Of a stretch of 64,000 bases of DNA, positions 12,668-36,554 are shown piece by piece. The notes beneath the pieces were generated by a model. The model did no database searches and was not told the origin of the DNA. It worked only from the letters and a program-made list of their open reading frames with translations. Source of the DNA: Bryobacterales bacterium (lineage in GTDB: Bacteria > Acidobacteriota > Terriglobia > Bryobacterales > UBA6623); assembly GCA_965206655.1 (NCBI GenBank), contig CBDBKC010000038.1, positions 831,430 to 895,429 of the forward strand, in the 5' to 3' direction. Position 1 is the first letter of the stretch; each line of letters begins with the position of its first letter. The position numbers and the translations under genes were made by a program.

Positions 12668-13506
12668 TCGAGGTCATCTTTCTTGATCTTGACGAGACGC
12701 TCGTCGCCCAGGAGCAAGCTTTCGAACGCGCCTACCAGGCGGTGGCGCGTTTGGCCGCGGACCTTTCCGGAATTGATGCCTTCTCGTTCGCGCAAGCGGT
12801 TCCGGCGGCGGCGGATGCTTGTTTCAACGGGTTGGGAACGGCCGAATTTGTACGGCGTTGCCGGTTTGGGGGACGAGATGTGCTCTGGGGCGATACGAGA
12901 GTGGGGGAAGCACCGGGAGAAGCGGGGGCGGATGCCGCGGAATCGCTGCGCAAGCTCGACGAGGAGGTCGGAGGATATCGTCTGGCGGCTTGGTCGCATT
13001 TGCTGGAAGAGTTCGGGGTTCGCCCCGGCTCGCAACAAGAGGAGATACGCGGTTCGCTTGATGCATGCTTCCGGCGGGAGATGGACGCGGGGATTGAGGC
13101 GTTCCCCGACGTCGTTCCAGCGCTTGAGCGGTTGAGCAGGAGCTACCGTTTGGGAGTCATCACGAACGGTTTGCCGCTGGGTCAGCGGAGGAAACTCGAG
13201 CGATTGGGGATAGCTCGGTATTTCGAAACGCTGGTGGCTTCAGCCGAGGTGGGAGTCGGCAAACCGGATCGCGAAATCTTTTGTAGGGCGCTGAGCCGAA
13301 TGCGAGTTGCCGCCGGTGACGCCTTGATGGTCGGAGATAGTCTGGAGGGGGATGTGCTTGGCCCGCAACGGGCGGGGATGAAAGCTGTTTGGCTGCGGCG
13401 CGGAGATTACAGCGGGGCAGGGTGCGCGAACGAGGTTCCAGTCGCGGCGGATCTTCAGGAGTTGGAGGCTGTGCTGAACTCGGTTTCACTCAGTTCGGCG
13501 CTGTGA
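12664..13506 (+). CDS. HAD-superfamily hydrolase (phosphatase)
   Basis: Motif I FLDLDETL at N-terminus; …VGDSLEGD… motif IV. ATGA start/stop overlap with the GT4 gene. Confidence 0.7.
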   Translation: MIEVIFLDLDETLVAQEQAFERAYQAVARLAADLSGIDAFSFAQAVPAAADACFNGLGTAEFVRRCRFGGRDVLWGDTRVGEAPGEAGADAAESLRKLDEEVGGYRLAAWSHLLEEFGVRPGSQQEEIRGSLDACFRREMDAGIEAFPDVVPALERLSRSYRLGVITNGLPLGQRRKLERLGIARYFETLVASAEVGVGKPDREIFCRALSRMRVAAGDALMVGDSLEGDVLGPQRAGMKAVWLRRGDYSGAGCANEVPVAADLQELEAVLNSVSLSSAL

Positions 13507-14840
13507 ATACGCGAGCGGTGGTACGGGGCTTGTGGGGTCTGGCGGTTAGCGCGGACCGACCGGAGGCGGAGATCGTGGCCTACCAGGAGGCTTGCCTGCG
13601 TCAGTCGGTCCGGCACGCCCACGCGAAGGTTCCCTATTATCGGCGGTTGTTGGATGAGGCGGGCGTCGATCCCCGCGGGATTCGCCGGCTGCGCGACCTC
13701 GCATTGATTCCCGTGACGTCGCGCGAAGACATTCAGTTGTTGTCCGCCCCTGACCTTTGTGCTCGGGACGTCGATGTCAACACATTACGGATGCTTCAAA
13801 CCAGCGGATCGACGGGAGCGCCTCTTACTGTTCGCCGCACACCTTGGGAGGAGCAGTTGATGCTCGCCTATCGGGTTCGAACGTACGTCGACCTTGGCTG
13901 GGATCTCCACTGGCGGAGGGCCGCCATCGACTACTACACACCGGAGACGTTGCGGGCGGAGGGCGGTGTCCAGGTGCATGATCGGCTTGGGATTTTGCCC
14001 CGGCTCTTGATTGACTGGCGAACCCCGAAGAGCCGCATCATCGACAAATTGGCGAAGTTTCGTCCTCACGCTGTGAGTGGACCTCCGTCGATTCTTTCGT
14101 GGCTCGCGGATGAGTGGACGGAAGAAGACCGGCGGCGGGTTCCCCTGCGAATGGTGATAGCGGGGGCCGAGACCCTCACTCGGGATATGCGTCGGCGGAT
14201 CGAGCGGGGTTTCGACGCGCCCGTTGGGGATGTCTACGGTTGCCATGAAACGGTCTTCATAGCGATGCGGGGACCGTCGCAAACTGCCCATCGGGTGTGC
14301 CGGGACGCGGCGATCGTCGAAGTGCTTAGGGATGGCAAGCCGGTGGGGCCCGGGGAATCCGGTGAGATCTTCGTGACAGCTTTGCATCTTTTTGCGATGC
14401 CATTTATTCGATACCGAGTGGGGGACACCGTGAGGGTGGGGGCGGTAGCGGGCGAAGGGGATTCGGTATCGGAGTTGACATCGATTGACGGACGGGTGAT
14501 GGACCGCTTCTTCCTTCCGGGGGGACGGGAGCTACATCCGTACGCGTTAGGTGACGCGATTCAGGACAGCGGTTTAGCCGTTCGGCGCTTCCAGATCGTG
14601 CAAGAGAGGCGCGATTTGTTTCTGGTGCGGATTGTGTTGCCCGAGGATGCCTGCGACGAGACGGCTCGAGTGGAATGTTTGGAAAGGCGGGTTCAGGAGA
14701 TTCTGGAAGGCGGCACGAGCGTGCGGCTGGAAGTTGTGAGGTCCCTGGCGCCGAGCGAGGGGCGTAAGTTTCGGCCGTATGTTCCCGTGGAGTCTTTATG
14801 CGGAGAAGATAGCTTTTCTGTCCCCTCATCTCATGGCTAG
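13503..14840 (+). CDS. Adenylate-forming enzyme, phenylacetate-CoA ligase (PaaK)/F390 synthetase family
   Basis: TSGSTGAPL P-loop-like AMP-binding motif. GTG start overlaps the HAD stop (GTGA). Confidence 0.6.
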   Translation: MNTRAVVRGLWGLAVSADRPEAEIVAYQEACLRQSVRHAHAKVPYYRRLLDEAGVDPRGIRRLRDLALIPVTSREDIQLLSAPDLCARDVDVNTLRMLQTSGSTGAPLTVRRTPWEEQLMLAYRVRTYVDLGWDLHWRRAAIDYYTPETLRAEGGVQVHDRLGILPRLLIDWRTPKSRIIDKLAKFRPHAVSGPPSILSWLADEWTEEDRRRVPLRMVIAGAETLTRDMRRRIERGFDAPVGDVYGCHETVFIAMRGPSQTAHRVCRDAAIVEVLRDGKPVGPGESGEIFVTALHLFAMPFIRYRVGDTVRVGAVAGEGDSVSELTSIDGRVMDRFFLPGGRELHPYALGDAIQDSGLAVRRFQIVQERRDLFLVRIVLPEDACDETARVECLERRVQEILEGGTSVRLEVVRSLAPSEGRKFRPYVPVESLCGEDSFSVPSSHG

Positions 14841-30888: not shown

Positions 30889-31129
30889 GGGCCAACTCGT
30901 CAAAGCTGCGCACTTGGATTCGGCCGCGCCGATCATGTACGCTGAAATCACGCCGGGAGACAATTTTTTCTGATTTAGCTATTGACACCACTGCTAAGTG
31001 GTGTTACTATTCTCTTGTTCGGAGGAAACCATGTTGCTACACGCCTATAAATCGAGGTTCCACATGCCTCATTGGTGCGGTCTCTTTGAGTCACCGTATG
31101 CCGGCGTGAGCGGACGCTCCGGACTCCAC

Positions 31130-31202
31130 TCGGATATAGCTCAAATGGATAGAGCATCAGGCCATAACCTGACTGTCACGGGTTCGAATCCCGTTATCCG
31201 CC
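31130..31202 (+). pseudogene. Degenerate tRNA-like gene (canonical D- and T-arms, but 6-nt anticodon loop 'ccauaa' and U1·C72 mismatch); possibly a decayed tRNA-Met/Ile2
   Basis: Manual fold: GCUC-AAAUGGAUA-GAGC D-arm, ACGGG-UUCGAAU-CCCGU T-arm, no CCA; anticodon stem UCAGG/CCUGA closes only 6 nt. Confidence 0.35.
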
Positions 31203-32619: not shown

Positions 32620-32722
32620 GCCGTGAAAAAACGGGGACTGTACCAAGCGCCGCCGCGTAACTGCTTTGTTCGCGGCGCTCACAAGCGGCGCGCCGTGGAC
32701 TGTCCCCAGTTTTTTCACAGCG
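32620..32722. repeat. MITE-like palindromic element, copy 2 (inverted orientation)
   Basis: About 90% identical to the reverse complement of copy 1. Confidence 0.7.
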
Positions 32723-32740: not shown

Positions 32741-32816
32741 GCAGGGTTGGTGTAAGCGGGCAGCATGGCGGATTCCAAACCCGCCGGTGGAGGTTCGAGG
32801 CCTTCACCCTGTGCCA
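32741..32816 (+). tRNA. tRNA-Trp (anticodon CCA)
   Basis: Manual cloverleaf: acceptor GCAGGGU/ACCCUGU, G73, encoded CCA, T-loop UUCGAGG; anticodon stem has one mismatch. Confidence 0.65.
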
Positions 32817-32859
32817 GAAGTTTGTGGTCTTTGACAACCGAATAGCCGTAAGAATTCGT

Positions 32860-32934
32860 TGCGGGATAGCTGGAGTGGCTCCAGTCCGGTCTCATAAGCC
32901 GGTAAGGGCGGTTCGATTCCGCCTCCCGCAACCA
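32860..32934 (+). tRNA. tRNA-Met (anticodon CAT; elongator or Ile2-type)
   Basis: Acceptor UGCGGGA/UCCCGCA, anticodon loop CUCAUAA, T-arm GGCGG-UUCGAUU-CCGCC, CCA encoded. Confidence 0.75.
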
Positions 32935-32950
32935 TTTTCGGAACAGGAAG

Positions 32951-33050
32951 GTGTGAAGAAATCGGGACTGTCACAAGCGCGGGCCAAAGCACTCGCCGGT
33001 TCGCAAGCGCTGACTGAAGCGCGGTTGACTGTCCCAGCATTTTTTCGCAC
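32951..33050. repeat. MITE-like palindromic element, copy 3 (diverged)
   Basis: gggactgtc … gactgtccc with aaa/ttttt flanks. Confidence 0.55.
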
Positions 33051-33059
33051 CTTCAAAAT

Positions 33060-33134
33060 GCCGGAGTCGTTCAACAGATAGGACCCTGGGCTTCGAACCC
33101 AGTGATGCGGGTGCAACTCCTGTCTCCGGTTCCA
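33060..33134 (+). tRNA. tRNA-Arg (anticodon TCG), non-canonical D/T loops
   Basis: Acceptor GCCGGAG/CUCCGGU, anticodon arm CUGGG-CUUCGAA-CCCAG, D-loop AACAGAUA (no GG), T-loop UGCAACU (G55), CCA encoded. Confidence 0.6.
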
Positions 33135-33138
33135 GTTT

Positions 33139-33218
33139 GGCCGTGTAGCTCCAATTCGGTAGAGCGTCCGGTTGAAGCCCGGAGCCTTGTGCTGGTTCGA
33201 TTCCAGCCGCGGCCACCA
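33139..33218 (+). tRNA. tRNA-Phe (GAA)
   Basis: Anticodon loop UUGAAGC, canonical T-loop UUCGAUU, A73-CCA; slightly long D and variable loops. Confidence 0.75.
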
Positions 33219-33224
33219 GTTTTC

Positions 33225-33299
33225 CGGCAGGTAGCCCAATGGCAAGGCGCCTGACTGTTAATCAGACCGATGGAGGTTCGAGTCCTCCCCTGCCGGCCA
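33225..33299 (+). tRNA. tRNA-Asn (GTT)
   Basis: Anticodon loop CUGUUAA; T-arm GGAGG-UUCGAGU-CCUCC; CCA encoded. Confidence 0.85.
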
Positions 33300-33312
33300 A
33301 GCAAATTGTCGA

Positions 33313-33389
33313 GGACCTGTAGCCAAGTGGAAAGGCGGCCGGCTGCAACCCGGTCTATGCGTTGGGTTCGATTCCCACCGGGTCCTCCA
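33313..33389 (+). tRNA. tRNA-Cys (GCA)
   Basis: Anticodon arm GCCGG-CUGCAAC-CCGGU; U73; CCA encoded. Confidence 0.8.
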
Positions 33390-33409
33390 ACAGATGTAGA
33401 GAAGATCGT

Positions 33410-33484
33410 TCGGAGATGGTGCAACAGGGAGCACGGGTGGCTTTGACCCATCGAATCCTGGTTCGAGTCCAGGTCTCCGATCCA
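33410..33484 (+). tRNA. tRNA-Gln (TTG)
   Basis: Anticodon loop CUUUGAC; T-arm CCUGG-UUCGAGU-CCAGG; CCA encoded. Confidence 0.8.
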
Positions 33485-33500
33485 AAGTTCGAGGAATCGC

Positions 33501-33578
33501 GGACCGTTGGCGCAGTCCGGCAGTCGCGCTCGGTTGTCAGCCGAGAGGTCGTGGGTTCAAATCCCATACGGTCCGCCA
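33501..33578 (+). tRNA. tRNA-Asp (GTC)
   Basis: Anticodon arm CUCGG-UUGUCAG-CCGAG; G73; CCA encoded. Confidence 0.8.
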
Positions 33579-33779
33579 GAGCTTGGGTGACGGGGAGCGT
33601 GGAGGGGGATCCCAGAAATGCTCAGGGGACGTCGCCCAATTCGATCTGGCTTAGGCGGTCTGGCTGCAATCAACAGATCACCGGCATCATCGGCCTTCGG
33701 CCGAGCTTGGAGATCGCGCACAGCGCGACCCGGCACGGCACAGCCGCGCGCCACAAAGCTTGTCGCGTTTCAGAGTTGA

Positions 33780-33854
33780 GCGTCCTTGGTGTCAACGGCA
33801 GCATGAAAGCCTTCCAAGCTTAGGGTGTCGGTTCAAATCCGACAGGACGCTCCA
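33780..33854 (+). tRNA. tRNA-Gly (TCC)
   Basis: Anticodon loop CUUCCAA, U73, T-arm GUCGG-UUCAAAU-CCGAC, CCA encoded. Confidence 0.7.
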
Positions 33855-33855
33855 T

Positions 33856-33933
33856 CAGGGTGTAGCTCAGTTTGGCCAGAGTTCCCGCCTTGGAAGCGGG
33901 ATGGCGTTGGTTCGAATCCAACCACCCTGACCA
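33856..33933 (+). tRNA. tRNA-Pro (TGG)
   Basis: Anticodon arm CCCGC-CUUGGAA-GCGGG; A73; CCA encoded. Confidence 0.85.
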
Positions 33934-33954
33934 CTTTTGTGGATTCCTAATTGT

Positions 33955-34029
33955 GGGTTCGTAGTTCAACAGCAGAACGGGTGACTTTTAATCATCACAA
34001 TGAGGGTGCGAATCCTTCCGAGCCCACCA
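33955..34029 (+). tRNA. tRNA-Lys (TTT), non-canonical D/T loops
   Basis: D-arm GUUC-AACAGCA-GAAC (no GG), anticodon loop CUUUUAA, T-loop UGCGAAU (G55), CCA encoded. Confidence 0.65.
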
Positions 34030-34030
34030 T

Positions 34031-34106
34031 GGGCCTATAGCTCAATTAGCAGAGCGCCTGCCTTGCAAGCAGGAGGTCGCGAGTGCAACTCCCGCCAGGT
34101 CCACCA
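34031..34106 (+). tRNA. tRNA-Ala (TGC), non-canonical D/T loops
   Basis: G3·U70 present, anticodon arm CCUGC-CUUGCAA-GCAGG, variable AGGUC; D-loop AAUUAGCA (no GG), T-loop UGCAACU (G55). Confidence 0.6.
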
Positions 34107-34117
34107 ACTTTGTTTGT

Positions 34118-34193
34118 AGGTCTATAGCTCAACCGGCAGAGCACCCGGTTCTTACCCGGGAGGTTGGGGGTTCGACGCCCTCTGGGCCTACCA
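34118..34193 (+). tRNA. tRNA-Lys (CTT)
   Basis: Anticodon arm CCCGG-UUCUUAC-CCGGG; canonical UUCGACG T-loop; CCA encoded. Confidence 0.75.
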
Positions 34194-34209
34194 AGTTTCT
34201 TGGAGCTTG

Positions 34210-34318
34210 TGCGAGGGCGAAAAACTGGGGACAGTCCACGGCGCGCCGCTTGCGAATGCGGCAAGCAGAGAAGTGACAGGGGCGGCGCTTGGTACAGTCC
34301 CCGTTTTTCGCGGGTTCG
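34210..34318. repeat. MITE-like palindromic element, copy 4
   Basis: …gaaaaactggggacagtcc…ggtacagtccccgttttt…. Confidence 0.7.
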
Positions 34319-34338
34319 ACGCCCGGCCCACAAAGTTC

Positions 34339-34415
34339 GGCCTTGTAGCCCAACCGGCAGAGGCGGCCGTCTCAAAAGCGGCGCAGTGAAGGTTCGAATC
34401 CTTCCAGGGCCACCA
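34339..34415 (+). tRNA. Class-I (short variable loop) tRNA with anticodon CAA (Leu codon UUG); isotype uncertain
   Basis: Anticodon arm GCCGU-CUCAAAA-GCGGC (perfect), 5-nt variable loop, canonical GAAGG-UUCGAAU-CCUUC T-arm, A73-CCA. Confidence 0.5.
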
Positions 34416-34485
34416 AGGTTTTGGCTGTGATGAAGGGGAGCGGTTGACGGCGGGACCGCTCTCTGACGATTACGGCTCGGTTTTT

Positions 34486-34562
34486 GCCTCGCTGATGGAA
34501 TTGGCATACATACCTGTCTTAGAAACAGGGTCTTCCAGGTTCGACTCCTGGGCGAGGTACCA
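34486..34562 (+). tRNA. Class-I (short variable loop) tRNA with anticodon TAG (Leu codon CUA); isotype uncertain
   Basis: Anticodon arm CCUGU-CUUAGAA-ACAGG (perfect), variable GUCUU, T-arm CCAGG-UUCGACU-CCUGG, A73-CCA. Confidence 0.5.
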
Positions 34563-34571
34563 ATTTGAAGT

Positions 34572-34654
34572 GGGTCGTACCGCGTGGCGCGGAAGCGGGC
34601 TGTAACCCCGCGGCTCGACGAGCACCGCTGGTTCGATTCCAGCACGACCCACCA
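34572..34654 (+). tRNA. tRNA-Tyr (GTA), class II
   Basis: Anticodon arm GCGGG-CUGUAAC-CCCGC, long variable arm GGCUCGACGAGCAC, A73-CCA. Confidence 0.7.
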
Positions 34655-34661
34655 CAGTTTC

Positions 34662-34738
34662 GGGCGTGTAGCTCAACGGAGAAGAGCAGGCGGCTTCTAC
34701 CCGCCCGGCTGGGGGTTCGAATCCTCCCACGCTCGCCA
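34662..34738 (+). tRNA. tRNA-Arg (TCT)
   Basis: Anticodon arm GGCGG-CUUCUAC-CCGCC; G73; CCA encoded. Confidence 0.8.
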
Positions 34739-34833
34739 AGAAAAAAGGGGACAGTCCACTTCGCGCCTCTTGGGGGTCCGGAGACGACCGCTGAGCCTTT
34801 AGGTGGCGCTCGGTACAGTCCCCATTCTTCTTG
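34737..34833. repeat. MITE-like palindromic element, copy 5
   Basis: caagaaaaaaggggacagtcc…ggtacagtccccattcttcttg. Confidence 0.65.
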
Positions 34834-34845
34834 AAGCCAAGAGAT

Positions 34846-34920
34846 TCTGGGTTAGCGTAACGGCAGCGCGGGCCGGCTGTGAACCGGTCGGAGTCAGTTC
34901 GAGTCTGACACCCAGTACCA
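34846..34920 (+). tRNA. tRNA-His (GTG)
   Basis: Anticodon loop CUGUGAA; irregular 5' acceptor end (possible -1 nucleotide) as usual for tRNA-His; CCA encoded. Confidence 0.65.
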
Positions 34921-34921
34921 C

Positions 34922-34997
34922 GGGGCAGTAGTCCAAGCGGATAGGATGCAGGGCTTTCAACCCTGCGATGAGAGTTCGATTCTCTCCTGCCCTGCCA
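34922..34997 (+). tRNA. tRNA-Glu (TTC)
   Basis: Anticodon arm CAGGG-CUUUCAA-CCCUG; G73; CCA encoded. Confidence 0.8.
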
Positions 34998-35002
34998 AGT
35001 CC

Positions 35003-35078
35003 GGGAGCGTAGCTCAGTCAGCAGAGCGTACGTCTGATATGCGTGAGGCCGAAGGTGCAATTCCTTCCGCTCCCACCA
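35003..35078 (+). tRNA. tRNA-Ile (GAT), non-canonical D/T loops
   Basis: Anticodon loop CUGAUAU; D-loop AGUCAGCA (no GG); T-loop UGCAAUU (G55); A73-CCA. Confidence 0.65.
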
Positions 35079-35085
35079 AGTCTGT

Positions 35086-35163
35086 TGCGGGTTAACTCAG
35101 CCGGGTCAGAGTGCCTCTCTTACAAAGAGGAAGTCAGGGGTTCGAGTCCCCTACCCGCTACCA
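35086..35163 (+). tRNA. tRNA-Val (TAC)
   Basis: Anticodon arm CCUCU-CUUACAA-AGAGG; U1·U72 mismatch; CCA encoded. Confidence 0.75.
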
Positions 35164-35167
35164 ATTC

Positions 35168-35176
35168 GCCCTCTTA
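35168..35176 (+). pseudogene. 5' acceptor strand plus positions 8-9 (gccctct-ta) of a tRNA-Thr split by IS630 insertion
   Basis: Complementary to the 3' acceptor AGGGGGC at 36330-36336; TA at 35175-35176 is duplicated at 36273-36274. Confidence 0.5.
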
Positions 35177-36272
35177 CTGAGTCCCGCATAATATTCAGTT
35201 AATCGAACGACAAAGAAGATTGCTTCCAAAAGGCGGCGATCAAGCGCCGTTTGCGGCGCATGCGGCGCAAAGTCGTGCGTGCCCGCTCGTCGAGCTCCCA
35301 GTAGTCGTTGGGGCAGACGTTGGGCAACTCGTGCTGCTTCCAGTAGGCCCAGATGTATTCCACCGGATTCAGCTCCGGGGCGTAGCCCGGCAAGTACTCG
35401 GTCTCGATGTGGCCCTGCGACAACGCGATGAACTCGCGCACCAACGCGCTGCGATGCGCCGGCAAGCGATCCCACACGATCAGCAACGGACGTTGTATGT
35501 GGCGCAGCAGCGCCTTGAGGAAATCGATCACCTCGGGACCGCGGATGGCGTCGGGATAGAGACGGAAATAGAAGTTGTGGAAAGTGATTCCGGCCGCCGC
35601 CGAGAGCTTCTTCCAGTTGAAGTTGAACTGCAGTACGGGCGTCTGCCCGCGCGGCGCCCAAGTACGGCAGCGATGTGGCTTCTGGCTCAGTCCGCTTTCG
35701 TCGATGAAGACGATCGTGCGGCCCTGCTTTTGCGCTTTTTTTTAATGGCGGGCCAAGTCTTCTTCTGCCAAGTCTGAATCGCTTCCTCGTTGCGCTCGCG
35801 GGCCTTGCCGACCGGCCGTTGCGGGCTCCAATGCAGCGCCCGCAGTAGCTTCCAGACGTGGCCTTCGTGGTAGCGCACCCCGAAACGGTCGCGGATCAAC
35901 CGCGCCACCCGCGGACAGCTCCACAGCGGTGTCGGGAAGCCGTGCGCTTCGGGTCCTTCGAGCAGCAGCCCTTCCAGCTCGGCGAGCTGCGCGGCGCTCA
36001 GCAACGGCTTGCGGCCGGCGCGACCGGCTTTGGCTAGCCCGGCTCGGCCGTCTTCGCGGTAACGCTGCACCCAGCCGCTGACGCTTTGTTGGGCGGCTTG
36101 GACTCTACGCGCCGCCTCAGCTTGGCTCAGTCCTTTTTCCACGACCAGCCGCACCGCCTCGATGCACCGCTTCTCCAGCGCCGCAAAGTCTCGCTTCACG
36201 CCTTTTGGAAAACCCATATCCAAAAGACGTCGCTCCATTACAAAAGGTTACCCTATATTATGCGGGACTCAG
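35177..36272 (-). mobile_element. IS630-family insertion sequence (1096 bp) with ~22-bp terminal inverted repeats and a TA target-site duplication
   Basis: Left end ctgagtcccgcataatat… versus right end …atattatgcgggactcag; flanking TA/TA. Confidence 0.8.
35199..36238 (-). CDS. IS630-family DDE transposase encoded in two frames joined by a predicted -1 ribosomal frameshift at A_AAA_AAG (35735-35743)
   Basis: N-terminal HTH ORF 35687..36238 ends …WPAIKKKRKS*. The -1 frame continues …KKAQKQGRTIVFIDESGLSQKPH… into ORF 35199..35531 (DDE region …LPGYAPELNPVE…). Confidence 0.75.
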
Positions 36273-36340
36273 TAGTTCAATGGGAGAACCGCTGTCTTGT
36301 AAACAGCCAATGGGGGTTCGATTCCACCCAGGGGGCTCCA
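36273..36340 (+). pseudogene. 3' portion of tRNA-Thr (TGT) (D-arm through CCA) separated from its 5' acceptor strand by the IS630 insertion
   Basis: ta-GUUC-AAUGGGA-GAAC, anticodon arm GCUGU-CUUGUAA-ACAGC, irregular T-stem, …AGGGGGC-U-CCA. Confidence 0.6.
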
Positions 36341-36350
36341 AGTTCGACGC

Positions 36351-36442
36351 GGAAGGATGGCCGAGTCCGGGAAGGCATTGGCCTGCTACGCCAAGGTGGG
36401 GCCGAAAGGCCCTCGGGGGTTCAAATCCTCCTCCTTCCGCCA
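36351..36442 (+). tRNA. tRNA-Ser (GCT), class II
   Basis: Anticodon arm UUGGC-CUGCUAC-GCCAA, long variable arm, G73-CCA. Confidence 0.85.
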
Positions 36443-36464
36443 AGTTTTGAAACAGCAAGTCTCG

Positions 36465-36554
36465 GGAGAGTTGGCCGAGCGGGAAGGCTCCGGTTTTGAA
36501 AACCGGTGACGTGTCGAGACGCACGCGGGGGTTCGATTCCCTCACTCTCCTCCA
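36465..36554 (+). tRNA. tRNA-Ser (TGA), class II
   Basis: Anticodon arm CCGGU-UUUGAAA-ACCGG, long variable arm, CCA encoded. Confidence 0.8.

Follow-up and report, generated by a model that had tools for sequence, protein, structure and literature searches.

Can a transfer RNA (tRNA) give up a near-universal contact of its elbow and still serve in translation? This question is raised by a window of 64,000 nucleotides from a Bryobacterales bacterium of the phylum Acidobacteriota (assembly GCA_965206655.1, contig CBDBKC010000038.1, positions 831,430 to 895,429 of the forward strand), in which four genes of a long tRNA array lack the GG dinucleotide of the D-loop and carry G in place of U at position 55 of the T-loop. 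An earlier note on this DNA had pointed out the four genes and regarded them as a distinct structural sub-class in which both elbow contacts were altered together, perhaps of foreign or mobile origin. The contact between G18 and pseudouridine 55 (Ψ55) is held to be universal in tRNA folds, and no tRNA modification is considered more conserved than Ψ55; the adjacent G19:C56 pair forms a flat platform, of which the ribosomal L1 stalk, RNase P and T-boxes make use. Canonically, G19 is paired with C56, and G18 intercalates between positions 57 and 58 and bonds to Ψ55 (PMC7912444; PMC4810234). We think it probable that the four genes encode functional accessory tRNAs with a compensated elbow, in which a G-clamp-type A18·G55 contact would take the place of G18·Ψ55. 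The four genes and the array to which they belong lie at the following positions of the window:

33060 to 33134, plus strand: tRNA-Arg(TCG), D-loop AACAGATA, T-loop TGCAACT (33112-33118), CCA encoded, 49.8 bits; A18 at 33076, G19 at 33077, A20 at 33078, G55 at 33113, C56 at 33114
33955 to 34029, plus strand: tRNA-Lys(TTT), D-loop AACAGCA, T-loop TGCGAAT, CCA encoded, 58.5 bits; A18 at 33971, G19 at 33972, G55 at 34008, C56 at 34009
34031 to 34106, plus strand: tRNA-Ala(TGC), D-loop AATTAGCA, T-loop TGCAACT, G3:U70, CCA encoded, 57.5 bits; A18 at 34048, G19 at 34049, G55 at 34085, C56 at 34086
35003 to 35078, plus strand: tRNA-Ile(GAT), D-loop AGTCAGCA, T-loop TGCAATT, CCA encoded, 63.4 bits; A18 at 35020, G19 at 35021, G55 at 35057, C56 at 35058
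32741 to 36554, plus strand: tRNA array of 23 same-strand tRNA genes for 19 amino acids, CCA encoded in all, interrupted by an insertion sequence (IS) and including the four odd tRNAs

ARAGORN and the Rfam model RF00005 place the Arg, Lys, Ala and Ile genes exactly where the earlier note had put them, each without GG and with G55. Their covariance-model scores are all above the gathering score of 29 bits and fall inside the range of the array (43-66 bits), and the alignments of the four cover model positions 1-71. None of them has the canonical G18 and U55, and all have A18 and G55 instead, with the residues of G19:C56, U54-A58 and G53:C61 kept throughout. The idea that both tertiary contacts had changed thus stands for one of them only: G18·U55 is replaced by A18·G55, and G19:C56 is retained in all four tRNAs. 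The sequence state and its register can be read directly from the genes. The covariance-model alignment sets the A under the consensus G18 and the G under the consensus U55, and A20, an identity base of tRNA-Arg, follows AG in Arg(TCG) just as it follows GG in the canonical Arg(TCT). No alternative register of the D- or T-arm restores GG or TTC in any of the four tRNAs, so that the original observation holds. The neighbouring tRNAs are canonical, as had been noticed before: the other 19 array tRNAs and a tRNA-like gene at 31130 combine a D-loop GG with a T-loop TTC, and the genes with G55 are exactly the four without GG (Fisher p = 9e-5, array tRNAs). Judged by sequence, the elbow change is limited to G18 to A and U55 to G, with only the 18·55 contact replaced and the 19:56 pair predicted to be intact.

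In all other respects the four genes resemble functional elongator tRNAs. Their anticodon loops (CTTCGAA in Arg, CTTTTAA in Lys, CTTGCAA in Ala and CTGATAT in Ile) have U33 and A37, and the 7-nucleotide anticodon loop, a purine at 37, the 7-bp acceptor stem, the discriminator base and an encoded CCA are all present. The identity elements, whose sets are established knowledge, are likewise found in the sequences, namely G3:U70 in Ala, A20 and C35 in Arg, U35, U36 and A73 in Lys, and the GAU anticodon with A73 in Ile. Each T-loop also carries the sequence signature of a G-clamp T-loop (UGNRA within a closing G:C pair, two bases bulging out 3' of the A), here TGCAA or TGCGA and then CT, AT or TT, flanked by G53 and C61. 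Thermodynamic folding gives a clean cloverleaf for Arg only, with one arm shifted or refolded in Lys, Ala and Ile; such shifts are frequent among tRNAs, and we gave the folds no weight in either direction. These tRNAs are most likely intact and translation-competent, to judge from their preserved elements. The geometry of the A18·G55 contact we infer, as we do the expression, charging and decoding of the four tRNAs.

Does the unusual elbow persist when the array is found elsewhere? A slipin protein, encoded between the tRNA-like gene and the array, provided a handle for finding homologous modules, and four further arrays with the same gene order, all of Bryobacterales, were found in this way:

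L162: syntenic metagenome contig, slipin 93% identical to that of the window
L164: 9.1-Mb genome, slipin 80%
L083: slipin 83%
L004: Bryobacterales chromosome OY764148.2, slipin 72%

Counted over the five arrays, G55 without GG is found in 18/18 orthologues of the odd tRNAs and A18 in 16/18, and the orthologues of Arg(TCG) in L162, L164, L083 and L004 are all A18/G55. The remaining array tRNAs have GG with U55 in 83 of 84 cases (Fisher p = 2e-19). The lone exception is an extra Arg(ACG) in L162 with U19:A56 (L162 13087-13162), and another compensated elbow variant, A19:U56, is found in Arg(ACG) of the Sulfurifustis arrays (L010 12445-12520; L011 5233-5308). Between arrays the A18/G55 tRNAs are 88-97% identical and the canonical tRNAs 88-94%, compared with 15-40% for the short spacers. 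This equal identity of the two classes indicates that odd and canonical array tRNAs are under the same strong purifying selection, which counts against decay. Within the loops, positions 57, 59, 60 and 20 vary among orthologues and positions 18, 19, 54-56 and 58 are constant; changes in the stems are compensatory or lead to wobble pairs, as in Ile 1:72 (G:C to A:U) and Ala 29:41. We thus find none of the low scores, broken stems or faster evolution expected of pseudogenes.

The composition of the arrays provides a further hint of their use. The window array covers 19 amino acids and the L162 array 20, and Ala and Ile are present in the window array solely as odd tRNAs. In L164 the A18/G55 Lys scaffold carries the anticodon CTT and the canonical Lys scaffold carries TTT (13410-13484 and 13567-13642), opposite to the arrangement elsewhere. 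Elbow type and anticodon are thus separable, and both Lys anticodons stay in the array. Together, the representation of Ala and Ile by odd tRNAs only and the Lys swap argue for a use of these tRNAs in decoding, as far as gene content can suggest it.

Independent evidence for a coupling between positions 18 and 55 comes from viral contigs, which we scanned with a pattern covering the D-arm only, with A18 forced and the T-arm left free (TAGCTCANNNAGNAGAGC), and with a matched control pattern in which G18 was forced (TAGCTCANNNGGNAGAGC). The A18-forced pattern recovered 48 ARAGORN tRNAs, G55 being present in 42 of them, in contrast to the G18-forced control, where U55-C56 was found in 130/130 (Fisher p = 1e-34). 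Matches of the A18 pattern outside ARAGORN tRNAs made up 74 of 122; 68 of these have no tRNA-like T-arm, consistent with chance, and 6 resemble additional G55 tRNAs. Looking from the T-loop side, G55-C56 occurs in 71 of 1,237 unique viral-locus tRNAs, with AG in register in 70 of the 71. The same comparison recovers the textbook Watson-Crick covariation at 19:56 (U56 with G-A in 20/22, A56 with G-U in 4/4 and G56 with G-C in 4/5 viral tRNAs), which validates the approach. Position 57 co-varies as a third position, A57 being commoner with G55 (40/64) than in U55 T-loops (125/519; p = 1e-9). C55 behaves differently and goes with a retained G18, since 13 of 15 C55 tRNAs have GG (viral loci L169-L409). 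The viral G55 tRNAs span 18 isoacceptor families, and they account for roughly half of the tRNAs in certain clusters such as L169 and L183. Among the co-resident tRNAs of the control viral contigs the base rate of G55 is 7/490 (~1.4%), and it is 0/117 among cellular tRNAs from fetched loci outside the five arrays, the samples behind this mobile-versus-cellular comparison being small and selected unevenly. The coupling of A18 with G55 appears again, independently, in many tRNAs of viral contigs.

Single examples are also found in well known elements. The tRNA array on the delta plasmid of Nostoc PCC 7120 has one tRNA with this elbow, a tRNA-Glu(CTC) with D-loop AAATAAGATAA and T-loop TGCAACT (NC_003273.1 52006-52083, minus strand; L413 2507-2584). 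In Klebsiella phage vB_KpnM_Seu621, the tRNA-Ile (L289 4001-4076) has AGTCAGTA with A18-G19 and the T-loop AGCAAAG; as a further departure from the consensus, this tRNA combines A54, G55 and G60. Phage T5 has no G55 tRNA, and its tRNA-Ile is an A19:U56 covariant (L410 8211-8287) annotated as convertible into an amber suppressor, from which it follows that a related elbow covariant is functional. No close relative of the odd tRNAs, meaning none above ~76% identity, was found in GenBank phages, and a plasmid search for array relatives returned IS630 and generic tRNA matches only. The G55-rich viral clusters L169, L183 and L235 were considered as donors of the array and set aside, the identity of their tRNAs to those of the window being only 57-75% and uninformative. 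Likewise we find no clear paralogy that would point to a common origin of the four tRNAs by duplication: their nearest neighbours by stem sequence are mostly canonical tRNAs, and the likeness among the odd tRNAs is limited to the T-stems of Lys and Ile and the T-arms of Ala and Arg. A foreign origin of the four tRNAs separate from that of their neighbours, as the earlier note might suggest, is not supported: each homologous array includes them as regular members, and they do not group together as closest relatives. The elbow type as such is nevertheless typical of phage and mobile-element tRNA clusters.

How could such an elbow work, and how could it arise? In the yeast SUP4oc suppressor tRNA, single substitutions at G18, U55, G19 or C56 abolish activity (PMC4117946). 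T-loops outside tRNA mostly have G at the equivalent of position 55, a 'G-clamp' that touches the intercalated base, the 'U-clamp' of tRNA being the exception (PMC2615604). A screen of the cobalamin riboswitch T-loop found G at position 2 to be nearly invariant, with A or U working as intercalator (PMC6158498). In the elbow that we propose, the outer G19:C56 pair would be kept as the platform and the inner G18·Ψ55 contact swapped for A18·G55, with A18 as the intercalating base in a U-G-N-R-A G-clamp T-loop, by analogy with ribosomal RNA (rRNA), RNase P and riboswitches. The double change would then be a compensated state, each single change being deleterious, and the inactivity of single mutants at 18 or 55 would explain why the two changes travel together. 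Redundant copies, as on arrays, plasmids and phages, would be the main place for such a double state to arise. From the time when the tRNA is needed, purifying selection would hold A18 and G55, and the way out of the state would be as difficult as the way in. A valley at the single step combined with redundancy would account both for the enrichment on mobile elements and for the stability in the array. With A18 and G55, the four tRNAs cannot carry Ψ55 (made by TruB) or 2'-O-methylguanosine 18 (Gm18, made by TrmH). The commonness of the elbow on mobile elements could be caused by tolerated drift or by evasion of elbow-acting enzymes.

Several observations weigh against this proposal. The Ala orthologue in L004 and L164 has a 6-nucleotide D-loop, AATGCA, with G19 and G55 and no A18, so that A18 is not strictly required, and among the A18-forced viral tRNAs 6 of 48 retain U55. 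In the window tRNA-Ala there are two A·C mismatches, one at 7:66 that only this copy has and one at 52:62 that L162 shares, and this gene may be slightly impaired owing to them; L004 and L164 pair normally at both positions, and their D-loop is shorter by 2 nucleotides. Moreover, the orthologues in the arrays stem from few ancestral events, and the array counts given above overstate the number of independent observations. The viral-contig data supply the independence that the array counts do not.

Other explanations of the odd elbows have to be set against these data. If the four genes were decaying pseudogenes in a silent array, their loop changes would be random damage. L-arrays can indeed hold dead genes, as reported for the Anabaena operon, where 3/26 tRNAs were undetected (PMC8421152), the window array is damaged elsewhere by an IS630 insertion and a truncated tRNA-Thr, and the window tRNA-Ala has its two A·C mismatches. 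Nevertheless, decay is barely credible, given that in four genes exactly the same two positions have changed and G19 and C56 have not, that all 18 orthologues are conserved, that identity between arrays equals that of canonical tRNAs while the spacers are unalignable, and that scores lie within the array range and stem changes are compensatory. The view taken in the earlier note, of a distinct co-varying sub-class and not of random decay, is borne out by the presence of the state in five arrays, its slow evolution relative to the spacers and its viral recurrence. It is also scarcely probable that the array simply mirrors its host, with Bryobacterales copies of these isoacceptors always being A18/G55, housekeeping copies included. 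The second Lys and second Arg tRNAs of the array are canonical, as are the same isoacceptors in the Sulfurifustis arrays and the stand-alone tRNAs in the fetched Acidobacteriota loci, and none of the 117 cellular tRNAs outside these arrays has G55. On this last figure, and on the array context, rest our terms 'accessory' and 'non-standard for the lineage'.

A different role could be imagined for the four tRNAs if the odd elbow kept them off the ribosome and their Arg, Lys, Ala and Ile went to some other acceptor, as in lipid aminoacylation or by peptide and cell-wall transferases. Lys-tRNA and Ala-tRNA are donors for aminoacyl-phosphatidylglycerol synthases, which would fit. A precedent is the non-proteinogenic tRNA-Gly of S. 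aureus, which lacks G18, G19, U55 and C56 (PMC4574755). Yet the Bryobacterales tRNAs, unlike those of Staphylococcus, keep the G19:C56 platform for the ribosome; Ala and Ile have no other representative in an apparently full decoding set; the Lys anticodon swap of L164 leaves CTT and TTT both represented; A18/G55 is seen in 18 isoacceptor families of phage clusters; and a scan of ten neighbouring open reading frames detected no domain of the Fem, MprF or L/F-transferase type. We therefore hold a dedicated non-ribosomal role to be very improbable. Adaptive evasion, in which the elbow was selected on mobile elements and phages as a poor substrate for T-loop tRNases, TruB, TrmA and TrmH with ribosome use kept, would add a cause to our explanation and not replace it. 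It would be consistent with the apparent enrichment on mobile elements (4/23 in the array, up to about half in L169 and L183, ~1.4% in control viral contigs and 0/117 in cellular loci, from small and uneven samples) and with the same A18·G55 solution being used across the 18 families. The toxin CdiA-CT E479 does cut the T-loop, between T54 and Ψ55 (PMC9086364), and tRNA array units have been termed a putative anti-defence system (PMC12803027). However, no nuclease, toxin or defence gene adjoins the array, only 4/23 array tRNAs are in this state and without link to a known target set, relaxed constraint also predicts a mobile enrichment as redundant copies can cross the single-mutant valley, and the cellular figure is no true baseline. 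The data bear on evasion solely through the mobile-element bias, and neither exclude nor support it; we regard it as unlikely. A bolder version, which we likewise regard as unlikely, would make A18·G55, with A57 preferred, a widespread and hitherto undescribed second elbow lock that is positively selected on phages, plasmids and arrays to escape or hide from host TruB, TrmA, TrmH and T-loop tRNases without giving up the G19:C56 platform required by the ribosome, and the Bryobacterales array a domesticated, partly 'stealth' set.

The proposed compensated A18·G55 elbow can be placed among several known departures from the tRNA consensus. The Staphylococcus tRNA-Gly is likewise a natural bacterial tRNA without the D-loop GG and U55, but it has lost G19 and C56 too and is kept from translation, whereas the Bryobacterales four retain G19:C56 (PMC4574755). 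They also differ from it in having a specific co-varying 18·55 pair, four amino-acid identities and no Fem-type transferase among the ten open reading frames scanned nearby. The UGNRA T-loops of the G-clamp kind in rRNA, RNase P and riboswitches share the signature U54-G55-N56-R57-A58 with an intercalating purine from a distant strand (PMC2615604, PMC6158498), but this motif was described in RNAs other than tRNA, and the likeness of the Bryobacterales tRNAs to it is one of sequence. Metazoan mitochondrial tRNAs and the tRNAs for pyrrolysine (tRNA-Pyl) and selenocysteine (tRNA-Sec) also lack some of G18, G19, U55 and C56, but with shrunken or remodelled loops and co-evolved partners, in contrast to the four tRNAs, which are otherwise standard. 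Phage tRNAs such as T5 tRNA-Ile are likewise mobile-element tRNAs that are off the universal positions yet work. Phage tRNAs with anticodon-loop changes escape host nucleases; these changes differ from ours in lying in the anticodon loop and not in the elbow, and the 18·55 swap is not a Watson-Crick covariation.

The array itself belongs to a known class. ARAGORN finds 24 tRNA-type genes on the plus strand between 31130 and 36554, that is 24 genes in 5.4 kb or 4.4 per kb, 23 of them within 32741-36554; 23 of the 24 pass RF00005 (43-66 bits), the exception being tRNA-Tyr. For a tRNA array unit, Tran et al. (2016; PMC4758250) require 20 or more tRNA genes with no fewer than 2 per kb, and the window array fits this definition. 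It also has the features of an L-array (long, same-orientation, patchy and horizontally spread; Santamaria-Gomez et al. 2021), patchiness being seen in some close slipin homologues with only 0-2 tRNAs downstream. L-arrays are further described as supernumerary to a full housekeeping set, silent, and inducible by translational stress; the operator-like repeat in the promoter spacer of the window module is at most suggestive of such control. Published L-arrays and tRNA array units (PMC4758250, PMC8421152, PMC10272220) resemble the window array in having at least 20 same-strand genes, more than 2 per kb and roughly one per amino acid, and in their patchy spread and differing contexts in related genomes. 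In the passages and abstracts of these papers that were consulted we found no mention of an elbow covariation. The trn operon of Anabaena PCC 7120, which is repressed by TrcR and induced by stress (PMC8421152, PMC10272220), allows a comparison with the Bryobacterales promoter and its operator-like repeat, which is a resemblance only. Of the Anabaena operon tRNAs, 23/26 are aminoacylated in vivo, the three others not being named in the text (PMC8421152). The window array differs from L-arrays in that a conserved leader, a tRNA-like gene and the slipin gene are joined to it, and it also departs from the 2021 survey, which groups Acidobacteriota with the phyla that have accretive arrays only (PMC8421152).

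The array holds an IS element and, in its spacers, four copies of a small repeat resembling a miniature inverted-repeat transposable element (MITE):

35175 to 36274, minus strand: IS630-family element inside the array, with perfect 20-nucleotide terminal inverted repeats and a frameshifted transposase
36272 to 36329, plus strand: 5'-truncated remnant of tRNA-Thr(TGT), 38.6 bits, RF00005 model positions 7-64
32627-32714, ~32960-33050, 34220-34308 and 34741-34830, both orientations: MITE-like copies

The tRNA-Thr(TGT) gene is whole at the matching position in L162 and L004; IS630 truncated this twentieth gene and left the window array without a gene for Thr. The MITE-like element is palindromic, about 90 nucleotides long (AAAAACGGGGACTGTACC...GGACTGTCCCCAGTTTTT), and its copies lie in array spacers; the syntenic L162 array is shorter, at 2.7 kb. 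Some canonical members of the array have peculiarities of their own. The only listed match of tRNA-Tyr(GTA) at 34572-34654 is the tRNA-Sec model, at 35.6 bits (threshold 47), and not RF00005. ARAGORN draws the D-stem of this tRNA with 3 bp and leaves one base between it and the acceptor stem; alternatively, CCGCG-TGG-CGCGG could make a 5-bp D-stem with a 3-nucleotide loop, and the odd D-arm is kept in other arrays (CGTGGCG or CATGGCG). The tRNA-Phe(GAA) at 33139-33218 has a canonical elbow, an unusual anticodon loop, TTGAAGC (G37, C38), and a 7-nucleotide variable region. Uncommon loop flanks are also found in several further array tRNAs.

Upstream of the array lies the rest of the module:

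30982 to 31010, plus strand: promoter-like site TTGACA-N17-TACTAT, its spacer with the invariant inverted repeat CACCAC...GTGGTG
30982 to 31129, plus strand: the promoter-like site together with a structured leader of ~110 nucleotides at the head of the module, conserved, with some covariation
31130 to 31202, plus strand: tRNA-like gene with a 6-nucleotide 'anticodon' loop, a 6-bp acceptor stem, no CCA and a GG/TTC elbow, 49.4 bits
31445 to 32557, plus strand: slipin/SPFH (Band 7) protein of 370 amino acids, between the tRNA-like gene and the array

The promoter and leader block is common to loci that have no other flank in common. Flanking genes are shared with the window by L162 only, and L004, L164, L003 and L166 share just the module, which in L164 adjoins an IS3 element, a group II intron reverse transcriptase and a Uma2 gene. 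The whole module of leader, tRNA-like gene, slipin and array looks mobile, judging by its different genomic contexts in different genomes. The slipin has its best matches in Bryobacterales (Acidobacteriota) genomes; no relatives were found in viral contigs, and a comparison with PADLOC and NCBIfam gave no defence family, only weak HflK/C-type matches below the cut-off. The tRNA-like gene is found 160-480 nucleotides upstream of a slipin gene in Acidobacteriota, Gammaproteobacteria, Burkholderiales, Alphaproteobacteria and Planctomycetota (L002-L016, L022, L082, L084, L162-L167). Across these phyla its D- and T-arms are strongly conserved, with a 6-bp acceptor stem and usually no CCA, and its 'anticodon' loop is hypervariable (6 or 7 nucleotides), differing even between near-identical copies. 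In Bryobacterales the conserved promoter with its invariant CACCAC...GTGGTG repeat and the structured leader stand ahead of it. No Rfam family exists for this gene.

What do these tRNAs mean for the biology of the elbow and of tRNA arrays? Non-canonical elbows and tRNA arrays are each already known. A limited literature search turned up no account of a specific, conserved A18·G55 covariation with G19:C56 left in place, or of its recurrence in phages and arrays. A long tRNA array is now placed in Acidobacteriota, which had not been listed before as a phylum with such arrays. If our reading is right, the tRNA elbow has at least one alternative solution, which would converge on the G-clamp T-loop of other structured RNAs. 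The four would be natural tRNAs without the Ψ55 and Gm18 sites, usable for asking what purpose these modifications and TruB binding serve. The combination of AG in the D-loop and UGC in the T-loop is a simple marker that may flag tRNAs of the phage or mobile type. The finding also touches on the reason for the presence of tRNA genes in phages and arrays, which may be as spare parts, as a codon supply or as an escape from tRNA-directed attack.

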